DNA of 64,000 bases from Escherichia coli (GCF_044324785.1 NZ_CP172127.1), one strand, 5' to 3'. Shown: positions 23,279 through 36,978, counted from the first letter of the stretch. The notes: a model not told the origin generated them from the sequence alone. Numbers and translations: made by a program.

Positions 23279-24166
23279 TTAAATTCTCAATGTATCGATA
23301 ACCGCTCGTAGGGCGGGTGACACATTGCGGTGCGGATAATAGATATATGAACCCTCCAGGCGTTGGCTGTAGCATTGCAAAACTCTGATTAGCGCCCCCT
23401 GTTCTATATCATCAGACACTAATTCCTCCGGAACATAAGCCAGCCCCAGACCTAGCCTTGCGGCTTTGGCTTCCATATAACTGTCAGCAAAGGCCCATTG
23501 TCCCTGAGGCTGATGGGTGATCTTTTTACCGTCCTGATTGAGTTCCCAGGCATACAGACTGCCGTCGCCGAACTGGTAAGCGATGCAGGGATGACCTACT
23601 AAATCGGTGGGGGTTTGTGGAAATCCGTAGCGCTGAAAGTGCCCGGGCGTGCCGACAACAGCCATCTCCATATCGGGCGAAATGCGCACCGCAACCATAC
23701 CGCTATCCACTTCCGAGCCCAGACGTATACCGGCATCGAAGCGCTCAGTAATAATATCGACAAACCGGCTTTCGCTGATGAGCTCCAGCCGAATATCCGG
23801 GTATCGTTGTTTAAACACCGCCAGCTTCGGCAGCAGCACTTTATCAATGGCGTGCTGGCTCGCATTAATTCGGACCGTACCCGATGGTGTATGGCGATAA
23901 TGGGCCAGCGTGGCAAGCCCCATATCTAAGGCGTCAAATCCAGATTCGACGTTTCGATAGAGTAACTCGCCGGCATGGGTGAGCGATAACTTGCGCGTGG
24001 TGCGTACCAGAAGCTGCACGCCCAGTCGCTCTTCCAGCTCGCGCACTGCACGGCTAATTCCTGACTGCGCCAGGCCAAGCCTCTGCGCGGCGGCGGTAAA
24101 ACTCCCTTCTCGCACGACCTGCATAAACAGATAGAGATCGTTATAGTTTTCCCGTTTCGCCATCAT
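23279..24166 (-). CDS. LysR-family transcriptional regulator
   Basis: N-terminal HTH FTAAAQRLGLAQSGISRAVRELEERLGVQLL and LysR substrate-binding region. Confidence 0.85.
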   Translation of the reverse strand: MMAKRENYNDLYLFMQVVREGSFTAAAQRLGLAQSGISRAVRELEERLGVQLLVRTTRKLSLTHAGELLYRNVESGFDALDMGLATLAHYRHTPSGTVRINASQHAIDKVLLPKLAVFKQRYPDIRLELISESRFVDIITERFDAGIRLGSEVDSGMVAVRISPDMEMAVVGTPGHFQRYGFPQTPTDLVGHPCIAYQFGDGSLYAWELNQDGKKITHQPQGQWAFADSYMEAKAARLGLGLAYVPEELVSDDIEQGALIRVLQCYSQRLEGSYIYYPHRNVSPALRAVIDTLRI

Positions 24167-24318
24167 CCTTCCCCTGCTGCATCACAATTCAGAACAATAT
24201 GTTATTAATCTTAGCATTTTTTACCCTCTAATTAGCACTATTAATGCTAACTATAATGTGCGCGTTGCAACAAAGCACAGCAGTGTTATCCGTATGAAAC
24301 CAGTATCTGGCACATTTT

Positions 24319-25470
24319 ATGAGGGGGATTTTGATGACTGCTTTCACCCAAAAATTGACAGCCGCGATATCCACCATGCTGTTATGCGTATCATTAAGTG
24401 GAGTCACAAATATGAGTTACGCTGATACAACCAATCCGAACGCGCCCGTTTCGCAGGTCGAGAAATGGGATAAAACTTTTGCTGAGAGCACGAAAGTTGA
24501 TCACCGTAAGGTGACCTTTCCGAACCGGTACGGGATCACCTTAGTCGGGGATCTCTATATACCGAAGGATCGTGGCGATCGCAAGATGGCAGCAATTGCT
24601 GTTAGTGGCCCCTTCGGGGCGGTGAAAGAGCAATCCAGTGGCCTGTATGCGCAGACGCTGGCTGAACGGGGGTTTGTCACTCTGGCTTTTGACCCTTCAT
24701 ACACGGGGGAAAGCGGCGGCTACCCGCGAAACGTCGCATCTCCGGATATCAACACCGAGGATTTCAGCGCGGCGGTTGATTTCTTAGGCCTGCAAAAAGA
24801 GGTGGATCGCAACCGTATCGGGTTGCTCGGCATCTGCGGATGGGGTGGCATGGCCTTAAACGACGCCGCGATGGACACACGTGTCAAGGCGGTGGCGAGC
24901 AGCGTGATGTATGACATGAGCCGTGCAATGGGGCATGGCGTGGGCGATGGCAAAGACCGCTATACCACTGCCGATCGTCGTGCCGTATTGCAGTATTTGA
25001 ACATGCAGCGCTGGAAGGATGCTGAAAATGGCGCTTTCGCGCCAGGCGGGCATGATATTTACGTTGATGAGAAGGGCAACGTCACCGCTTCCGATCGTAT
25101 TTTACCGGAAACTTTGCCAGCGAATTCTAATCCGGTATTGAAAGAGTTCTTTGATTATTACCGCATGCCGCGTGGTTTCCATGCGCGTTCGGTCAACTCA
25201 ACCAGTGCCTGGAATGCAACCATGCCGCTGTCATTTATGAATATGCCGCTGCTGAGTTACGCTAATGAAGTTACTATCCCTACACTCATCGTGACCGGTG
25301 AAAAAGCCCATTCACGCTATTTTGCTGAAGATGCCTTTAAGGCAATCGGCAGCAAAGAGAAAGAGTTAGTGATTGTCCCCGAGGCAAACCATGTTGATCT
25401 GTACGACAACGTTGCGGGTAAGATCCCATTTGCCAAATTTGAGCAATTTTTCAAGGCAAACTTAAGATAA
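24319..25470 (+). CDS. secreted alpha/beta-hydrolase fold protein
   Basis: Signal-peptide-like N-terminus; nucleophile elbow GICGWGG; likely start is the ATG at 24334 after GAGGGGG. Confidence 0.7.
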   Translation: MRGILMTAFTQKLTAAISTMLLCVSLSGVTNMSYADTTNPNAPVSQVEKWDKTFAESTKVDHRKVTFPNRYGITLVGDLYIPKDRGDRKMAAIAVSGPFGAVKEQSSGLYAQTLAERGFVTLAFDPSYTGESGGYPRNVASPDINTEDFSAAVDFLGLQKEVDRNRIGLLGICGWGGMALNDAAMDTRVKAVASSVMYDMSRAMGHGVGDGKDRYTTADRRAVLQYLNMQRWKDAENGAFAPGGHDIYVDEKGNVTASDRILPETLPANSNPVLKEFFDYYRMPRGFHARSVNSTSAWNATMPLSFMNMPLLSYANEVTIPTLIVTGEKAHSRYFAEDAFKAIGSKEKELVIVPEANHVDLYDNVAGKIPFAKFEQFFKANLR

Positions 25471-25646
25471 CCCGAAAGGTTTACCAGGCCACCTGTCGTA
25501 AACGGGTGGCTTTTAACTGCCTGGTGTGATGCAGAATATGCCGCATCTCCCTATATTCTCACCCAACTATTATGTCGTTATTCCCTGAATAACTTCTGAC
25601 CCGATTGCGCTTGAATCTGGCTGGTTCGATATTAAGGGGGCTAATA

Positions 25647-26840
25647 ATGTCCACTGTAAGTCTCAAACAATTATACGGAAAAACGCATGCATACTGGAGC
25701 GGCGTATTCGCCATGACGCTTTGCGTGTTTGTGCTGATCGCTTCTGAGTTTATGCCAGTCAGCCTGCTTACGCTCATTGCCCATGATTTGCACGTTACCG
25801 AAGGGCTGGCAGGGCAAGGAATTGCTGTCTCTGGTGCGCTGGCGGTGCTTACCAGTCTGACTATCTCCCGTATTACCGGAGACCTGAATCGAAAATATCT
25901 TCTGCTGGGGCTGACGGCCTTAATGGCCATATCGGGAATAGTTATCACCATAGCACCTGACTATCCGGTTTATATGCTGGGGAGGGCCCTGATTGGTATC
26001 GTCATTGGAGGGTTCTGGTCAATGTCGGCTGCAACCGCCATTCGGCTCGTGCCGAAGCAGCATGTCCCCCGCGCACTGGCAATTTTTAACGGCGGAAACG
26101 CACTGGCCACCGTTGTGGCAGCGCCACTTGGTAGCTATCTGGGGACAACCATCGGCTGGCGTGGGGCCTTTTTATGTCTGGTCCCCCTTGCGATAGCTGC
26201 GTTCATCTGGCAATGGGTCAGTCTGCCTCCGATGGAAAGTGATAAAACACAAAAGCTACAGAGATCTGTGCTTCGCCTGTTCAGCGTTGCCATCGTACCA
26301 ACGGGACTGCTGGCCTGCGGACTCTTCTTTATGGGACAGTTTGCTTTATTTACCTACGTGCGCCCCTTTCTGGAGAGCGTCACCAGAGTGGGACCTTCTG
26401 ATCTTTCTCTGATTTTGCTCGCAATAGGTGTAGCAGGTTTTGTCGGCACAATGATCGTCTCAACATTCCTGAACACCATATTTTATAAGACCTTAATAAT
26501 GATCCCGTTGCTTATGGCAGCGATTACCGGTGCGTTACTGCTGGTCGGACACCATATCTGGGCTGTTGCCGTTTTACTCAGCCTGTGGGGGCTACTTGCG
26601 ACAGCTGCGCCAACGGGGTGGTGGACATGGATAGCACGCGCGTTACCCGAAGATGCAGAGACGGGGGGAGGCCTCATGGTTGCAGTGATTCAGTTATCTA
26701 TTGCACTTGGTTCAACGGCTGGAGGTCTGGTATTCGACAGTCTGGGATGGAGAAGTGCTTTTGGTTTAAGTGGTTTGTTACTTCTGGGAGCGGTAGCGAT
26801 GACATGTGCCACATCCCGTCAAAACAGGAAGGCGCAGTAG
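25647..26840 (+). CDS. MFS transporter
   Basis: About 12 predicted TM segments; start trimmed to the ATG with AAGGGGG SD (track ORF begins 25605). Confidence 0.8.
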   Translation: MSTVSLKQLYGKTHAYWSGVFAMTLCVFVLIASEFMPVSLLTLIAHDLHVTEGLAGQGIAVSGALAVLTSLTISRITGDLNRKYLLLGLTALMAISGIVITIAPDYPVYMLGRALIGIVIGGFWSMSAATAIRLVPKQHVPRALAIFNGGNALATVVAAPLGSYLGTTIGWRGAFLCLVPLAIAAFIWQWVSLPPMESDKTQKLQRSVLRLFSVAIVPTGLLACGLFFMGQFALFTYVRPFLESVTRVGPSDLSLILLAIGVAGFVGTMIVSTFLNTIFYKTLIMIPLLMAAITGALLLVGHHIWAVAVLLSLWGLLATAAPTGWWTWIARALPEDAETGGGLMVAVIQLSIALGSTAGGLVFDSLGWRSAFGLSGLLLLGAVAMTCATSRQNRKAQ

Positions 26841-29302
26841 CGCAATCCTTTTATTTCTGGCGTACGCTCTTTAAGGCATCCGGCTGAGAGGCTAATGATC
26901 ACTCCTCGCTCACAACGGACCTTCAGCTCAGCCGCTCCGGCCGCTTCATGCCATGAATGTACGCAGCCAGTCAGAATATTAAGGTGCGGATTTCAGTTCA
27001 CTTGTCAGCCCAGTGATACAGGACAGTAATGACCAACAATTTGGTATTGATACAACAAGTTGCGGCCCCGGTTCGTGGGGGAGATGAAACGACGGTAGCT
27101 GAAGTTACTGAAATGAAGAATTCAGAGAGACTGAATGATATGCCTCACCTTTAGTGAATAGTGTAAAAACGGGAGACTCTCACCCGAGATTATCCACTCA
27201 TGCTCAATGTATAATTTTCGTGCCCCTCACAGGTAAGAGCCGGATGCATTCGTTGTGTACGTTGCAGAATTGGTAACCGGGGACCCTGCAGTCTTTAACT
27301 CCGAGTCTTGTGCTGCTCATTTGCCACAAAATCCTGGTACGCCAGCTCAATCATTTCATTCAACAGTTTTTTTGGGGGGCACCACGACTTCGGGCAATAC
27401 TTTCAGGCTGTTTGTGGATTTTTCCGGACAGTTTCAGCGGAACGGAACCATCAGCACGTTCATCACGCCTTTTTTGTTGCTCCCGGGCACTTTTCAGTTC
27501 ATCCACAATATAGCTGCTCTTCTCGCATTTTTGCCGATTTTAAAAATGCGAACAAAACATCCGTACATGATGTACAGATTAAACTGCCAGGGACTGGTGT
27601 CAGAAAGCCTCCGGTTAGCCTGCTCTTTCCGGAATGTGCCGGTTATGAAAAACCGGAAATTCAGTCTCTGTTGTAAGATGTACCCTCTGATACTACGTTT
27701 TCGTTTTCTCTGTGTATTTAACTCACTGTATTTATTGTCTTTTTAAGCCTGACTGATATTCTCCGGTCATAGTGTGCCGGATAGACATCCCGTAACCTTC
27801 TCATTTTTATATAAAAATACCTGCACTGTCTTCAGCGCATCTGTCTCCTTTAAGTAAAAAATGTTTTCACGTATTGCTGTAAATTCATTTTAAATCAGTA
27901 TGTTATCCTGATATTGCTGTCTCCTGGTTTGATGCGTAATCGTTCTGCCTTTCTGGATGATTCTGGTGCTTCCGGGTGCATTCTCCTCTGCACATGCAAC
28001 AGTTCGTCATCGCCACGTGCCCAAAAAGCATATAAAAACGAATCGAATCTGATCGTTTTTTCAATCGTTTTTCACAGGAATTTCGTAGGGTGTTCTCCGC
28101 TATAGCCTCCATATTTGCTGTCTTTTTCTTCATAAATCGTATGCAATATAACCAGTCTGTCAAGACATCTTCCCTGCTGTTGAGGTGACGATCTCATTTC
28201 TGGTCTTTTCCGGGAGAGAGACGGTCAGATGAGCGAGCCGGATTTACTGCCAGAGGTACTCCCCGCGGCAGAAAATAGTGCTCCTGTTTCCGCAATCCGG
28301 GATCGGCAACGTCCCATGGTTAATGCCACTTGCAGCGTCAGGCACTGCAGGTTTACGTCGTGATCTGATTTCTTCTGCACTTATCCCGATCACGGAAGTT
28401 CCCCCTGCGCAGACATCGGTTCCTGCCGACATCTCACAATACCGCCAGGCTGTCATGCAGTAACACCCGCAATGCGGTCTGCGGTTTTAAGCGCACTCTC
28501 CTGTTTTCAGTGCACCGATAAGCGTTATAGAAAGTCTGGGGTGAGTTACTGAATGTCTGTTAAGTGGTGCCGTGGGTGGAGACTGCTTACTTTTCCACAG
28601 CAACTGCAGTCATTCAGGATGCTCAGGAGAGAATATGTCAACGCCACGAGCCGGGCCATTTTCATGCCAGCCAGTATATTTTCTACACTGATGCAGTCTG
28701 ATTTTCACCATTCCATCCTCACTGATTGTCGTGTTGTTTTGGGTCATCACCACAGCTTTCCGTTTCTCTTTTAATCGGTAACGCTCTCCTTTGATATTCA
28801 GCGTGGTTGAGTGATGCAGCAGTCAATCCAGGAGCGCTGTTGTCCGGCAACCACCATATCAACTTCTTCCCGGCGTGCCGGCGCTGGTATCCAGGCCGGG
28901 TTTCGAAGCGAAGCGTTCCTGACGGACTCATTGACATCCGGGCCGGATGTAGTCATGCAGCATGGAACGTCCGCCCGTATACACTGACGGCGTCCGGCCG
29001 TGTACAGAGATCGGTAAAATTCGTTACTACAACTGTTCCTGAATATCTGACGAAGAAACATTCAGCAATAACATCCGGCCGTGTACATCTCTTTTGCGGT
29101 GCAGGGAGCACTGTCGCCATGTACTTATTGTCACCAGGGTGAGGCATGTACCGCAGCATGCCAGCTCAGCAATGACAGGATGCCCTTAAGACATCCGTCA
29201 TGGCTCAGTATGATGACGACGAACACGCTCTGCAGGTGAGCATGCAGGGCCGGGGGTATCATCATTTCCGTATTTTGCCGCACCTTCCGGAAACAACCGG
29301 CA

Positions 29303-29920
29303 TCAGTTACGGTTACCGTCAACCGTTGTGCGGTATGCCAGGAGCACGTACTGATCCATCAGATCCGTCAGTGCTGCGTTCTGCTTCTGACGGTCGATGA
29401 TCCATTCCCCCAGCTCTTTTTCTGATTTCCGTTTCAGGTTCTCCGTCCAGTCGTCAAGGCTGTTTCCGGTCATTAAATCAAGCCAGCAAAGCCAGACCAG
29501 TTTGAGGCGCAACTCCGTGCCACCAAACTGACGGAAGAGGCTGATCAGTTTATTTGCCAGAGAACGCTGCCTCAGACGTTCACATTCAGACAGCAGAATC
29601 CCTTCCAGCATCGGATGATGAACCAGCAGATGTTCGCTGGTGCATAAGTTCACCACCAGATCATCATCCAGGGGCGGCGTGGCCCGTTTGTCAGAGCCAT
29701 AAATCAGCCGGTGCAGACTCCGGGGTACGATGGCAATCTTCGGTTTTTCACCATTGAATGACACCCACCCGGGCGTCAGATTATGGAAGTAGTGGATATT
29801 CGGATGACACACGCCCCAGGATACGGCGTGCCGGGTGAAGCCGGTCAGCCATTTCTGGTAGCTTTCGTGGAGCAGCTCGTAACGGGTCTGATACTGTGGT
29901 TTCATTTTCATATTCCTCAC
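29303..29920 (-). CDS. hypothetical protein downstream of alpA
   Basis: 205-aa ORF on the same strand, 79 bp after alpA; no recognisable motif. Confidence 0.5.
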   Translation of the reverse strand: MRNMKMKPQYQTRYELLHESYQKWLTGFTRHAVSWGVCHPNIHYFHNLTPGWVSFNGEKPKIAIVPRSLHRLIYGSDKRATPPLDDDLVVNLCTSEHLLVHHPMLEGILLSECERLRQRSLANKLISLFRQFGGTELRLKLVWLCWLDLMTGNSLDDWTENLKRKSEKELGEWIIDRQKQNAALTDLMDQYVLLAYRTTVDGNRN

Positions 29921-29998
29921 GGGGGATAACAGGCAGCAGAGTGCCGCCGGCAGGCCGGAGATTGCGTCTGCTGTGGGCGAAGGGCCAGTGGTTAAAAA

Positions 29999-30205
29999 TT
30001 ACGGACGGGACTGTGCAATACGCGCCTGCAGCCAGGCTTCCACTTCACTTTTCAGCCAGCGGGAGCTGCGGCCGAGTTTGATGGGAGCCGGAAAGGCCCC
30101 ATCCTTGATGAGCTTGTAAAACCACTTATCGGTCAGGCCGGTCAGCTGAGTGATAAACGTCATATCGACCATCTGGTCATCCATCAGCGAAACTGGGGTG
30201 GTCAT
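29999..30205 (-). CDS. alpA: AlpA-family phage/island transcriptional regulator
   Basis: 68 aa; FITQLTGLTDKWFYKLIKDGAFPAPIKLGRSSRWLKSEVEAWL is the AlpA/MerR-like excisionase-type HTH. Confidence 0.8.
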   Translation of the reverse strand: MTTPVSLMDDQMVDMTFITQLTGLTDKWFYKLIKDGAFPAPIKLGRSSRWLKSEVEAWLQARIAQSRP

Positions 30206-30588
30206 AAAAATCTTCTCCGGATGTTGTTAATCTCAGCCGGCGTTGATGATGAAAACAACGCACCACCTTCACCGGCATAACAACCGGGGAGAAACGTAAA
30301 AAATCAGTAGGGGAATATTCCTGCCAGGAGAGAAACTGTTGTGTACAGGCAATACAGGTTGTCTGTTTTGTCAGTGAAGCCGGTATAAACGGAAGATGAT
30401 TTTGTGTTGCCGGAATATGGGATGGCGTTTTGCCGTGACAGGATCAGTATTTTCAGTGATGATTATTACTGTGCAGGGGAGTACCGGAGATAAACCACGC
30501 CCTGTACCTGCCAGAGCGGAGGTTTGTATTGACTGAACGGAAGATAAAGCGAGGTAAACACTGTTGCGGTGAGCGGAGAAGACTGAGA

Positions 30589-31380
30589 TTATTCTCTGTA
30601 ATTACAAACAACAGTGATCTGATCCGGTTTTTTTACCGTTACGGGTTTCCGGGGATCAATTTTATAGACCGGGGTAATGACCACGCCGGAATTTATGGAG
30701 AAAAGCGGGATCCAGCAATAAACGTCCGGATATTTCTGTGTCTCCGGAATACCTTTTGTGCCAGAGGCCATCAGATCTTTAACGCTCACGAAAAATGACT
30801 TCCGCAGATCAAAAAAGTACTCGTTATATATCACATCCTTTGCCAGCAGGATGACTGCATTACCAACAGCCGATTTTACAGGTGTTTCATCAGGTGGATT
30901 ATCGTGATTGTATATTGTTCTTTCTATATAAATAAAACAGGCATATTTCGTCTTCTCCCCGGATAGTTGCATCTGGTATTCGCAAATGTCTTTGATATAC
31001 CGACTTTCAACCCTTCCAATCATCTTATCCCGGCGATAGTGTCTTTTATGTTTCAGCGCGTACAGAACACCATTTGAACTGTCAAACTCCAGGACACTTC
31101 TGGTGAAAAGTTTGTTTTCCCAGATCTCCAGACAATACTTCTCTGCACTGACGACATTGCGTTTGTGGGGAAGATTCCGTTGATACACTCCATTTAATAA
31201 GCGTGACTGCAGTTCGCCTGCAAGTTGATAGTAACAGTTAATGTCATTAAGGACAGGTGCTGTGGCGTTGAGTAATGTGTTGATTACCTTAGAGCGCGAA
31301 AGTTTGTGGGTATGACAGTACTCATCCACAATTCGCAGTGTCTCATCACTGGTCATATTGAAAGTTATACGTGTTGTCAT
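30589..31380 (-). CDS. hypothetical protein: N-terminal ribbon-helix-helix-like domain fused to an unknown ~200-aa domain
   Basis: 263 aa, low GC; N-terminus ITFNMTSDETLRIVDEYCHTHKLSRSKVINTLL resembles a CopG/Arc RHH; remainder has no recognisable motif. Confidence 0.5.
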   Translation of the reverse strand: MTTRITFNMTSDETLRIVDEYCHTHKLSRSKVINTLLNATAPVLNDINCYYQLAGELQSRLLNGVYQRNLPHKRNVVSAEKYCLEIWENKLFTRSVLEFDSSNGVLYALKHKRHYRRDKMIGRVESRYIKDICEYQMQLSGEKTKYACFIYIERTIYNHDNPPDETPVKSAVGNAVILLAKDVIYNEYFFDLRKSFFVSVKDLMASGTKGIPETQKYPDVYCWIPLFSINSGVVITPVYKIDPRKPVTVKKPDQITVVCNYRE

Positions 31381-31719
31381 GATGAAGTTTTCTGTTAATC
31401 ATACTGGTTGATATGCATAACATTTCATAAAAAATACTGTTAATTCATATAATTGATTTTTTGACTGGTTTTATCCTCGTGTGGTGGAAAGCAGTATTAC
31501 TGCCACTGTAGTCAGCATAAATCTATCACACAGAACCACCGAAAATGAAGCATTGCTCAGGGGGAAGCTGCCACTCGTATGAGTTCTCTGAACCATGATA
31601 ACCAGTATTTTTCGTTTTGGGTGATTTGTTTATCGTTACAGCTACATACAGTTCATGTACCATTAAAAAATAATAAAGGTTAATTAGTATTATTTATAGA
31701 AGTATGTTTATGTAATTCT

Positions 31720-31765
31720 ACCGTGTAAATGAACCCTGTAATTCTACCTTGTAAATACACCTTGT
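31720..31765. repeat. tandem direct repeats TGTAATTCTACC(G/T)TGTAAAT in a 1.4-kb non-coding region
   Basis: Two adjacent copies plus multiple dispersed (C)TGTAA motifs between 31700 and 31930. Confidence 0.4.
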
Positions 31766-32797
31766 AACCAAGTCCTGTAGAAGTCTGTCTCATAGAAGTA
31801 TCTGTGCAGTGATATTCTCTGTAGTAGTACTTGTAACTCTGTTCTTAACTCTCTCTTCAGTAATGTAGTCCCGCAACACCTGAATATAAATCTGTAATGT
31901 TCACACACTGACTGTAACGTGCTTTGTTAAGTAATGTCTGCTATTTTTTTTTCTGTTATTTTTCCTGTTGTTTTCTGTATTTTGTTGTATGGTGTAATAA
32001 CTATTCTGAACCCGTCATCACCTTTATAGCTAAGAGTATGACTTCGCCAGTGTTGATACTGTGGATAACGGTGATTAAGGAATTACTGTTAATGATCTGT
32101 TCCTGCAGCTCACCTGATGAGTTTTGGTAGTAATACGTAAAAGAGTATGCCTCATGTCATTAAAAAGTCTTCCGGAGTGTTGTTTAACCCTGTACCTCTG
32201 TTACTCATGTAGTACGTTGCGGAAAGCTACGTTAATTGTAATATCTGGTTATGGCGTTATGCCTTCAGTATTAAAAACATCTTTTACCGGAGAAACTGGG
32301 AAGTGGAAAGGCTTTCGGGATAACGTCAGGCCATTATGACGATATTACGTTAATCACAGTACAAGATAACGAGAGGGTAATGGAATTTTAAACCAGAGTA
32401 GTTCCACTGTTGTTCACTGGAAAAAGTGATTTCCCACGCGCGTTATAAGCTTACTCCAGAGGAGATGGAAGCCTTCAACTCTGCGGTCGATCACCGGCTG
32501 GCAGAACTGACCATGAACAAACTTTACGATCGTGTTCCCGCTTCAGTCTGGAAATATGTTACCTGATAAATGTTTCTGATGAAGTACAGTCGTCACAATG
32601 ACATCACTTCAGATATTATCTGCGCTGTGATTGACTGTCACGTATGCCGTTCTCTGTATGGTTCTGATACCCGGGTGTGGTCCCACTTTCTCTGTGGCGC
32701 CCGGGGAGTTGTGAACCTGCACGTCTTCGTGTGATAACGTTTTCTTCAAAAATTACGCCAGCGCTTCTTCCTGTGTTACAGAACACGAGGAAGAAAC

Positions 32798-33397
32798 ATG
32801 AAGACTTACAACACCAATCCCGGTTACGAAATGGATCCCCAGCTCCTGACACACTTTAACCAGCATCTGGATTCATTATTCGGGGTATATTCGAAACTGT
32901 TACCGTTCAGAATGGATTTTGCTTACCGAAAAAACACCCTCAGCTACAGATGTGCCTGCAGGTACGCCATGTGCGCGGAGATACTGCGACTGATTAACGA
33001 AGTGGGAGAGAAACTGGTCGGGTATGCCTGGGTAATGGAATATACGGAACGTAAAGGGCTTCACATTCATTTTGTGGGCTATCTGAACGGTCAGAGCCAC
33101 AGGAGTTCGTATCTGGTATCCAGATTGATGGGAGATATCTGGAGGCGGGTTACCGGGGGGGATGGTTACTACCACTGGTGCCGGTTTAATAAAAATTATC
33201 CGGTAAACATTAACCACGTCATTCACTATTCAGATCACAAAGCGGTGAATGCCTTACGCTATGCCATCAGCTACCTGGCCAAACGAGAACAGAAAGAATG
33301 TGGCATCATCCTGAAATGCAGCGGGCTTCCTGAAAAAAGTAATCGGGGTCGACCGCGACTGGGCAGCCCCCTGCCGGAGACTTATTCTCTGGTGTAA
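32798..33397 (+). CDS. inovirus Gp2-type / YagK-YfjJ family protein (HUH replication-initiator-like)
   Basis: 199 aa; HUH-like LHIHFVGY motif; SD GAGGA. Confidence 0.65.
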   Translation: MKTYNTNPGYEMDPQLLTHFNQHLDSLFGVYSKLLPFRMDFAYRKNTLSYRCACRYAMCAEILRLINEVGEKLVGYAWVMEYTERKGLHIHFVGYLNGQSHRSSYLVSRLMGDIWRRVTGGDGYYHWCRFNKNYPVNINHVIHYSDHKAVNALRYAISYLAKREQKECGIILKCSGLPEKSNRGRPRLGSPLPETYSLV

Positions 33398-34152: not shown

Positions 34153-34574
34153 ACGGTATAAAAACGGGGCTGGGGATCACGCCGGGTGAACACATTATCA
34201 GTGCTGATTCTGCGCTCAGCAGAAATATCCGGCAGTGTTTCTGCCTTTCCTGTCATGGCCGGTTGATTTTGCAGACAGATGCTCAGGGGGCGTGGTTTGA
34301 GCACGATTTACATGTCCTGAGCGAGCAACAGAAGGCAGCCTGCGTGGTGCTGAATCCGGAAAAGTCCCACCCTTACATTGAGGATATGGAGATGTTTTTA
34401 TCGCCATTACCGGTCGTGCTGGAGTGGCATTGTGTGATGTGTGAGCAGTTTTTTCATGGGAAGAAATTCTGTGAGGCCTGTGGTACGGGGATTTATTGCA
34501 GAGCGGTATGTACGAAGTCTGTTTACAGCTACCAGCCAGACTTGTTTCAGGACTGCGGAGGTGCGAGTACTTAA
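34149..34574 (+). CDS. small zinc-ribbon protein (paralog 2 of a tandem pair)
   Basis: 141 aa; CLSCHGRL...WFEH and CVMC...CEAC motifs parallel the upstream gene. Confidence 0.5.
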   Translation: MNGIKTGLGITPGEHIISADSALSRNIRQCFCLSCHGRLILQTDAQGAWFEHDLHVLSEQQKAACVVLNPEKSHPYIEDMEMFLSPLPVVLEWHCVMCEQFFHGKKFCEACGTGIYCRAVCTKSVYSYQPDLFQDCGGAST

Positions 34575-35045
34575 TCCGAAATGCCCGACCTGCTCAGGGC
34601 GTTCAGAAGTATCGGAACCTGCATTTTATCTGGTGTTTCGCACCCACCCCGTTCGTGACACAAAGGCGCGACACCGGATATCCGCAGTCCTGCTTACCTG
34701 AATAAAACCCGGGGTATTGATTGTGTACTGTGGTGCGAAATCGCACCGTGATCGCGGATTCGCCGAATCCGCACTGTGGTGTCAACCAACCATACGCGAG
34801 AGTCCTCTCCGTATTTATCAGTGCCTCAGGACGATTTCTGCATAGTTAATCCAGGGGGCTGCATTGTTTATTTCCCTGCTAATGGACGTGACATCCAGGA
34901 TATTCATGATCCTGATTTCCCTGAGCAGTATCAGCGCTTATTGGAGCGTCTGGATTATCAGACGATGCCCGGTACTAAAGCATCAGGCCAGCGTAACTCT
35001 GGCTACAGCGGTTTTTGACCTGTTGTAACTGTAAGGTGATTTATT

Positions 35046-35612
35046 ATGTATACAGAATCAAATGTTAAGCTTTCCTGTAACGCCCTCTGGCAAAAGTGTG
35101 TCCTTGCAACTCTGTATCGGGCTGCAGCCACACATCCTGAAATTAAATTATTACAATTTAAATTAATACCAGGGCAGGGTATTAATAAGGCCATTCCCTC
35201 TCTGATGGCTGATTTTACTGGTGAACTGCATAGACTCATTTCTGAATATTTGCAGTGTAAGCGACGTAAAGAGCAATCTGTTGAGCCCACCCCTTTATAT
35301 TATCTCTGGAGTAGGGAAGCTGTGGCTAACGATACCACTCCTTATCTTATGGTGCTGCTACTTAATAACGATGTCTGGTGTAAGAGTCGTGAGGTGGTGG
35401 TTCTCAGAAATCTGATTGAGCAGGCGTGGGGAAAAGTATTGGGTGAAGATAACTCCATTACACATCTGGTTGTGTATCCTGAAGTGCTGTCGTTGGTATT
35501 TGATGCAGCTAACACATACAACGCTGAGCCTGCTGTACTGGAACAGACGGCCCGGGCTTACATTGAATCACATGGTACCATTGAACGTCATCTTGGGTGT
35601 AGTGACTTTTAA
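35046..35612 (+). CDS. YagK-like (inovirus Gp2-type) protein with degenerate HUH motif
   Basis: 188 aa; YLWSRE...PYLMVLLLNNDVWC aligns with the HYHVILLLNKDTWC motif of the 57669 paralog but lacks both His. Confidence 0.6.
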   Translation: MYTESNVKLSCNALWQKCVLATLYRAAATHPEIKLLQFKLIPGQGINKAIPSLMADFTGELHRLISEYLQCKRRKEQSVEPTPLYYLWSREAVANDTTPYLMVLLLNNDVWCKSREVVVLRNLIEQAWGKVLGEDNSITHLVVYPEVLSLVFDAANTYNAEPAVLEQTARAYIESHGTIERHLGCSDF

Positions 35613-35957
35613 CGTCAGGTGATGCATAAGGGCCTTTCGCTGAGAGGCCCTGTTTACACAATTAAATAAATCGAGCCCGACCAACAATTTTGATGTTAAC
35701 AGCAGGATTATTGAGGGGCAATCAATGTGTTCTTCGGTAGCGATTACGGTAGTGAACGGACCTGCTGTCTGAATGGCATCGATCCGCAAGCGTATCGGCG
35801 CCATATTCTGAGCGTACTACTGAAATGGCTAATGGCAGTAAAGAGAGACTTTACGTATATTTGCATAAAGCAGGATTTTACGACTAGTCAACATTCTTTA
35901 TAATTCTTCAGGTTCAGAGTATCTGACATATAGGGTTATGTATTGGGGAGACATTTA

Positions 35958-36659
35958 ATGTTTGGCCATCTGTTACGATACTTTAGTTTCTGTAAAAAAG
36001 ATTTATTAGTATTTCATCCTGAATCTGATTACTCAGATAATTTACATAAAGCCTTCTCTTTTACAAAAAGGCTAGGATTTAATGAAGAATGGAATGGGGT
36101 CACAAAAAACAAAGAATATGATTATCAGGATGTATTCAGTCATGTCTGTCTGCAGTCTGGTGTGACAGACTTTTCCGCTTCAGCAGGACAATGCTTAAAG
36201 TGGAGTCATTATTTTCAGCCATATTTTGAGAATATCCTTGAATGTCGGGTATGGGTTACCGTTGGACAACTCTGGAAACAGGAACGATTTATTTACAATC
36301 CGTCAGTTGCGGATTTTCAGCGCTGGTCTGAAAAAGGGATTCAGCCTGAAGATTTTAGACATCACTCGGGGTTTAACTTTCATGCGTGGTTGACGACGGA
36401 AAATGGTGTGATTGTGGATGTTTCCTTTATGAGTACGTTATCGCGGCGATTACCTGAACACCTGAGTGAAGTCAGTGGAAGTGTGATTATTGGCACGCCA
36501 GAGACGGTTCTTCCTGAGTATAAATATGTTCCCATGATTGTCGGTCAGAGGATTGTTGAGAAAATAGAAAAACGCTCTTTCATTGGTTTTCTGGCGCACG
36601 ACGATATTGATTTATATACAGTACCTGCAATCTTGGTTCCGGTATGGAAAGAATGTTAA
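35958..36659 (+). CDS. hypothetical orphan cargo protein
   Basis: Track ORF starts at TTG 35943; ATG at 35958 preceded by GGGGAG; 233 aa; low GC; no recognisable motif. Confidence 0.5.
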   Translation: MFGHLLRYFSFCKKDLLVFHPESDYSDNLHKAFSFTKRLGFNEEWNGVTKNKEYDYQDVFSHVCLQSGVTDFSASAGQCLKWSHYFQPYFENILECRVWVTVGQLWKQERFIYNPSVADFQRWSEKGIQPEDFRHHSGFNFHAWLTTENGVIVDVSFMSTLSRRLPEHLSEVSGSVIIGTPETVLPEYKYVPMIVGQRIVEKIEKRSFIGFLAHDDIDLYTVPAILVPVWKEC

Positions 36660-36978
36660 AGCACGGAATAACACTATGCACTTACCGCTTTCCGGAACTC
36701 AGCTTGTTACCTGAGCGGTCAACAGAGCAGTCTTTCAGTGTCTGCACTTGGTTGCCACTAAACCGGAGTCATTTATCAGAAGTATATGTTCATGGAAGGA
36801 TATTGTCAGCGCCAGTGATATAAGACGGTAATGAGGATAGCCACCCCGCATGGGTTTCCTCAACACTGGTCACTGTGACAAGCGCACCATGATCGTCTTT
36901 GTATCGCTGATTGACTTTCGATAATAGAACATCTTCTGACATAAATTTTAGTACGGTAACAATTAACTAAATTTTCAT

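Follow-up and report, generated by a model that had tools for sequence, protein, structure and literature searches.

The segment from 26841 to 29302 of the window (the whole stretch of Escherichia coli DNA analysed here, 64,000 nt in length) is very probably neutral, eroding DNA of a CP4-type island, with no working gene and no dedicated signal, and the short repeated motif within it would be a by-product of that erosion. This reading was built by comparing the sequence with those of sister islands. The segment is part of a chromosomal island adjoining the gsp/yghD locus, in which the order on the minus strand is an alpA-like gene, a 202-aa gene, the segment itself, MFS/hydrolase/LysR cargo, a GTPase, Ag43 and a CbtA/CbeA toxin-antitoxin pair. 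The same layout is found in CP4-type (alpA/Ag43/cbtA-cbeA) islands of E. coli, where alpA and a small hypothetical gene are followed by a variable or decayed zone, GTPase, Ag43 and CbtA/CbeA. With its lineage-specific deletions, and with IS100, IS66, IS1 and IS2 inserted at the same spot in sister islands, the segment is a typical example of the class. K-12 CP4-44 lacks the alpA side of the island. The stretch 26850–29350 is 100% identical to the chromosome of E. coli A20 (NZ_CP028755.1); parts of it are found in 3657 of 5426 complete E. coli genomes, and at least 80% of it is covered in 1055. The features of the segment and of the two genes beside it are as follows.

26841–26905, no strand: tail of the cargo module (LysR, alpha/beta hydrolase, MFS transporter), ending at the junction with the island backbone.
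26906–27294, no strand: conserved, non-coding 3′ flank of the 390-aa gene, 88–100% identical in ~1170 genomes, with only the adjacent gene annotated.
27295–27528, minus strand: pseudogene of a 390-aa orphan protein, with ATG at 27528–27526, deletion junction at 27504–27513 and stop at 27295–27297.
27529–28635, no strand: conserved 1.1-kb upstream region of the 390-aa gene, 85–92% identical to AGR6128, GF8 and a Klebsiella record.
28636–28650, minus strand: right terminal inverted repeat of the IS21-family remnant, TGTCAACGCCACGAG on the plus strand, the minus-strand element ending in ...CGTGGCGTTGACA.
28688–28843, minus strand: istB fragment (IstB residues 214–265) with an in-frame TGA, from tblastn and megablast.
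28875–28981, minus strand: frameshifted istA fragment (IstA residues 85–121), from tblastn against IS21 IstA (E = 3e-4 to 1e-3).
28968–28983, minus strand: motif copy A (TGTATACGGGCGGACG), comprising istA codons 85–89 (Y T G G R) plus TG(T) from beyond the deletion junction.
28982–29302, no strand: 3′ flank of the 202-aa gene, either non-coding or too decayed to be recognised, where the 81-bp unit between copies C and B is found.
28991–29006, minus strand: motif copy B (TGTACACGGCCGGACG), exact only in the window lineage; relatives read TGCACATG[A/G]CC[G/C]GGCT.
29072–29087, minus strand: motif copy C (TGTACACGGCCGGATG), the older one, within the conserved 3′ flank.
29303–29911, minus strand: context, intact 202-aa hypothetical gene after alpA (RefSeq CDS WP_198583305.1).
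29999–30205, minus strand: context, alpA-like excisionase/regulator gene (phrog_66 'excisionase and transcriptional regulator', E = 1e-9).

The alpA-like gene is called an AlpA family regulator in the annotation of sister islands, and the 202-aa protein has no match in Pfam, NCBIfam, PADLOC or PHROG. Upstream of alpA, a 263-aa hypothetical protein (30589–31380, minus strand) is kept in several sister islands; it has no credible match in Pfam, PADLOC, PHROG or NCBIfam, the last giving only two matches far below threshold.

An initial annotation of this DNA had seen no credible long open reading frame in the segment, and we agree. The longest stop-to-stop frame, 169 codons, lies within the range of shuffled sequences (118 ± 26, maximum 227), and between the MFS stop (26840) and the stop of the 202-aa gene (29303) RefSeq has only two pseudogene fragments and one 66-aa ORF. 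The tblastn comparison with related islands that had been proposed for finding ancestral genes was run, and it identified a 390-aa gene as well as fragments of an IS21-family element. The suggestion of a remnant of earlier cargo holds for the former, which stands intact, at 390–393 aa, in the same place in the related islands of AGR6128 (locus L002, 4394–5566) and GF8 and survives in the window only as a pseudogene. What had gone unrecognised is the IS21 stump, ~350 bp beside the motif with IstA, IstB and the right terminal repeat. The deletion in the 390-aa gene is internal, out of frame and ~950 bp long, with blastn breakpoints at 27503/27514 in the window versus 4603/5552 in AGR6128 locus L002, and leaves the first 5 codons and the last ~75 (residues about 314–390). 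In tblastn the intact AGR6128 protein is 69–92% identical to the pseudogene, of which RefSeq gives 27295–27506 as a frameshifted partial pseudogene ('frameshifted hypothetical protein'). None of four HMM libraries (Pfam, NCBIfam, PADLOC, PHROG) matches the 390-aa protein, and the homologues returned by homology search are unnamed proteins only, all from E. coli where a source is named.

The match to other islands begins at 26902–26906, which marks a sharp junction between the backbone and interchangeable cargo. To the left of it are a TonB receptor/ABC transporter in AGR6128 and CFT073, and ParA-type cargo in GF8. Since CFT073 has an identical decayed segment next to other cargo, recombination at 26902–26906 appears to have exchanged the cargo. 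At this junction, 39 nt (26902–26940) are 97% identical to the interior of a gene annotated 'adhesin' in strain EC476 (two matches). On the other side of the pseudogene, the upstream region (27529–28635) contains no ORF conserved between lineages; its AT-rich core lies at 27700–28100, with a GC content of 35–40%.

The IS21-family remnant (28636–28981, minus strand) is internally deleted, with ~350 of ~2100 bp left, and its DNA is ~84% identical to IS21 overall. Compared with members of this family (IS21, ISEc62 and IS100, with an istA transposase, an istB AAA+ helper and terminal inverted repeats built of direct repeats), it is alike in the order of istA and istB and in its right end, and differs in lacking a left end and both the DDE and ATPase cores and in its broken frames and in-frame stop. 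The two fragments lie on the same strand in the canonical order, istB immediately 3′ of istA, with ~1.5 kb deleted between istA codon ~121 and istB codon ~214. By tblastn the istB fragment is 71% identical to IS21 IstB (E = 3e-18) and 67% to ISEc62 IstB; megablast matches it to annotated istB genes, and it is this fragment that RefSeq/PGAP presents as a partial 'AAA family ATPase' pseudogene. In the istA fragment, 42 nt (28940–28981) match annotated IS21 istA genes at 92.9% identity, with the similarity ending exactly at 28981. Aligned with tandem IS21 copies (pCFSAN083828_2), the right end, ...CATGAAAATGGC..CGTGGCGTTGACA, corresponds to theirs (...CGTGGCGTTGACA) and terminates in CA-3′; strain 5270 has the same IS right end in the same flank. 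The DDE catalytic domain, Walker motifs and left end are absent from the remnant, neither a left terminal repeat nor a target-site duplication was found in the window, and no left end was found in any sister lineage. Judged by what is left of it, the remnant is a non-mobile stump and not a complete member of the family. A plasmid search gave no intact copy of its IS variant. The sister islands are broken at other points: the surviving istA begins at residue 85 in the window and at ~41 in AGR6128 and 2024CK, AGR6128 keeping residues ~41–84, split from residue 85 onward by IS100 with target duplication CATTG, 2024CK keeping residues ~41–54, and istA of GF8 beginning at about residue 112.

The repeated motif lies next to this remnant. 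The two copies that had been reported just downstream of the gene after alpA were confirmed: TCCGGCCGTGTACA occurs exactly at 28993–29006 and 29074–29087 on the plus strand, 81 nt apart and 216–333 nt past the stop (29303) of the 202-aa gene. There is a third copy, TCCGCCCGTATACA, with 2 mismatches (12/14) at 28970–28983, 23 nt from the copy at 28993. The minus-strand reading lengthens the motif to 16 nt, TGTAYACGGSCGGAYG. The accompanying AGAGAT (29006–29011) and ATCTCT (29087–29092) are likewise present and are reverse complements, a pair of only 6 nt that is reduced to 5 nt or less in sister islands. No other copy and no inverted copy was found in the 64-kb window, and a 201-nt query around the motif matches this island only, plus IS21 istA for its first 52 nt; the many genomic copies that define a dispersed intergenic repeat (REP/BIME/ERIC-like) were not found for it.

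We compared the copies across lineages in an alignment of 11 alleles (A1), which shows graded conservation of C, an exact B in the window, GDAR2-2 and CFT073 only, and one copy in strain 5270. Copy C reads TGTACACGGCTGGATG in GF8 and AF60, TATACACGGCTGGATG in E-1246 and CTCACACGGCAGGATG in 2024CK; in AGR6128 it can hardly be made out. The alignment shows it to be old flank sequence. Copy A has another source. At istA codons 85–89, IS21 reads GGCTATACGGGCGGACGTTCC / TATACGGGCGGACGTTCC, and alignment with these codons shows copy A to be the istA YTGGR codons, which resemble C by chance at 12/14 positions. The deletion junction in copy A, with CCGTCAGTGTA joined to TACGGGCGG in the window and CCGTCTGTATGGCACAGGTTACGGG... 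in relatives, is lineage-specific; beyond this point the other lineages carry either older istA (AGR6128, across IS100) or further flank (GF8, 2024CK). Copy B is a patch of change: its 16 nt hold 4 window-derived changes, compared with 5 over the 159 nt upstream (Fisher p = 0.0045). All 4 of these changes produce the base found in copy C, and the patch lies 12 nt from the deletion junction.

Chance resemblance of unrelated sequences is a very unlikely source of the repeat as a whole. It describes copy A well enough, whose likeness appears largely coincidental and whose istA codons a deletion happened to bring beside B. By chance alone, however, only ~0.01 exact 14-nt repeats would be expected in 2.4 kb (an estimate from pairs × 4^-14), and none of 100 dinucleotide shuffles of the window gave three motif matches (mean 0.37). 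The changes in B are clustered and directional, all 4 going towards C, so coincidence is refuted for B and C only.

Direct repeats beside an IS21 remnant could also be binding repeats of the transposase. IS21 ends carry two or more direct repeats (L1/L2, R1/R2), separated by 23 bp, with a CA-3′ terminus (PMC10122671), and on these grounds we considered the three 16-mers as repeats of this kind: a terminal-repeat array or pseudo-end (TGTACACGGCCGGA-type) belonging to an IS21-family element, one that perhaps directed the deletions nearby. The motif begins with TGT on the minus strand and abuts the remnant, copies A and B are 23 nt apart from start to start, and three similar 16-mers at 23-nt and 81-nt spacing superficially recall the direct repeats of an IS21 end. 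Counted by hand from the sequences, the motif also agrees with the remnant's right terminus (TGTCAACGCCACGA) at 9/14 positions. Copy A, however, is istA coding sequence, the same bases being present in IS21 codons 85–89; it sits ~350 nt into the element and is therefore no end. Nor do B and C behave as termini: their flank homologues in other lineages lack the TGT start, and homology crosses the would-be terminus, including in strain 55989. Neither strand of 28984–29302 is significantly similar to IS21 or ISEc62, the similarity to istA is not significant once the motif is removed, and the window holds no inverted partner. In terminus position, inverted counterpart and likeness to an end, TGTAYACGGSCGGAYG does not have the properties of an IS21-type terminal direct repeat, its agreement with the real right end remaining at 9/14, and the repeated motif is not the terminal repeat of the remnant. 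This explanation is already largely refuted, and we consider it the most improbable of those weighed here.

The 202-aa gene's 3′ flank (28982–29302) has homologues in all lineages examined, where it is longer and more diverged. Three candidate identities for parts of it were rejected. The extra 261 nt in the GF8 flank, taken as an ancestral gene fragment, contain a 75–79-aa ORF with matches only to itself among 5.8 billion proteins. The flank as a decayed IS left end with the istA N-terminus, an idea prompted by the spacing and by short matches seen by eye, gave local alignments to full IS21 and ISEc62 that were no better than those of shuffles. Copy C as a second, older istA 'YTGG' fragment appeared significant (0/1000 shuffles) due to the motif alone; with the motif removed, 42 to 587 of 1000 shuffles score equal or better, depending on the reference.

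A regulatory or terminator role for the motif region, as the initial annotation had entertained, found no support. On the transcribed minus strand, a scan of 28900–29302 gave no terminator-like hairpin with a U-run, and the numbers of terminator-like and promoter sequences across the region equal shuffle expectation. A search of Rfam 15 (E ≤ 1, 24000–33000) returned a single overlapping match, to CRISPR-DR13, which scores 27.9 against a 37-bit threshold (E = 0.51) and falls inside the istB fragment. RNA folding gave nothing unusual, with z = -0.6 for 141 nt, the fold that uses the AGAGAT/ATCTCT pair, and z = -1.9 for 343 nt. An element of the alpA/202-aa gene transcript, such as a protein- or RNA-binding site in its 3′ UTR or a termination site, would be well placed here, 216–333 nt downstream of the stop on the transcribed strand, and two exact copies exceed chance. 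Copy C reads GUACACGGCCGGAUGU, which we take to recall, loosely, GGA-type RNA-binding motifs. Against such an element stand the lack of a minus-strand hairpin with a U-run near the motif, of an unusual fold and of an Rfam family. Furthermore, sister islands in which the alpA and 202-aa genes are preserved at 91–96% identity have no copy B, strain 5270 has lost one copy and the spacer, and in strain 55989 the flank homology fades within ~25 nt past the position of copy C. The initial annotation had held that its proposal would fail if homologous islands had ordinary intergenic DNA here, and ordinary flank DNA is what they have, with B not conserved and C progressively diverged. A regulatory or termination element is very unlikely, and with neither terminator, Rfam match, unusual fold nor cross-lineage conservation the motif does not appear worth pursuing as one.

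The events that best account for the segment as eroding island DNA can be set out as follows. An IS21-family element in minus-strand orientation once separated the 202-aa gene's 3′ flank from the upstream region of the 390-aa gene, and deletion then took different pieces from different lineages. In the window lineage, one deletion removed ~950 bp from the 390-aa gene; a second, of ~1.5 kb inside the IS, joined istA codon ~121 to istB codon ~214; and a third joined the flank just past copy B to istA codon 85. The 23-nt distance between copies A and B is due to this third deletion, which brought the YTGGR codons next to B. Copy B itself would be a 16-nt patch made by short templated repair or a template switch from C, perhaps as part of the event that produced the neighbouring deletion; a series of three or four separate point mutations is the less likely origin. 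The cluster identical to C, 12 nt from a deletion junction, resembles the templated patches left by template switching, just as the loss of exactly one repeat plus a 67-nt spacer in strains 5270 and 3CM resembles direct-repeat deletion by replication slippage. Both mechanisms are read here from end products only, and we place the events in no order. More specific accounts of copy B are improbable: that B was rewritten to C in the same event as the deletion, as a record of microhomology-mediated template switching, or that the B/C pair was selected as a candidate double binding site for the AlpA-like regulator or the 202-aa protein. Selection for a second binding site, in place of templated repair, could also lie behind the four-substitution cluster that makes B equal to C.

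The exact repeat has had consequences of its own. The three-copy arrangement of the window is present in 263 of 5426 complete genomes, including GDAR2-2 and CFT073, the latter with an identical allele at about 281.5 kb of NZ_CP051263.1. In strain 5270 a single B/C repeat is found, with the upstream flank of C joined to the downstream flank of B, one repeat and the 67-nt spacer (81 bp in all) having been lost, and strain 3CM gives the same two-piece match. It is the collapse to one copy in these two strains that leaves the promotion of deletion as the only demonstrable effect of the repeat; on this comparison, the exact 14-nt direct repeats render the 81-bp unit between them unstable. The locus offers a small, clean case in which the erosion of an island makes short exact direct repeats, which drive further deletion. 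It also allows better annotation of DNA that roughly one in five complete E. coli genomes carry, CFT073 among them: the PGAP 'AAA family ATPase' is an istB stump accompanied by an unannotated istA piece and an IS21 right end, and the 'frameshifted hypothetical protein' is a deletion derivative of the 390-aa orphan gene. The segment is real but ordinary, and of little importance.

Several further observations concern the segment and its surroundings. A leader hairpin with a 9-bp stem (ATCTGTACATCATGTACGGAT) followed by a T-run lies at 27579–27549 on the minus strand, ~20–30 nt ahead of the 390-aa gene's start codon. Four lineages keep the hairpin, which in AGR6128 and GF8 contains a 9-nt tandem duplication (TCTGTACAT), and it could be an attenuator for the 390-aa orphan gene. 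An unrecognised function may lie elsewhere in the segment, since the upstream region and the 3′ flank are conserved in thousands of genomes. The 66-aa hypothetical ORF (WP_096980503.1; WP_011076196.1 in CFT073) lies at 29200–29400 on the plus strand, overlaps the 3′ end of the 202-aa gene by 98 nt in antisense and is kept in GF8 and strain 55989. The ORF may represent a genuine small gene, or else an artefact of annotation. The same island segment is found at ~87% identity in NZ_CP079635.1, a 1.04-Mb Klebsiella pneumoniae 'plasmid' (pAI1527P_P1) labelled non-mobilizable and with 5 annotated features, which is probably chromosomal sequence or a mislabelled assembly.

In sister islands (AGR6128 locus L002, 6972–8936; 2016C04-116 locus L013, from 1911; 55989 locus L009, 1233–1930) the zone downstream of the 202-aa gene has been struck repeatedly by insertion sequences and looks like a local hot spot for insertion and deletion. 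IS100, with target duplication CATTG, lies 7 nt from the position of the window's deletion junction, the distance from the motif region to IS66/ISEc23 is ~120 nt, and IS1 and IS2 are nearby. The window also carries a second IS21-family element, of the ISEc62 type, near which the motif was not found. This element is nearly complete (34574–36540, minus strand), has an internal stop in istA, and sits in a 'putative zinc ribbon protein' gene of which a leftover piece is present at 36644–36736.
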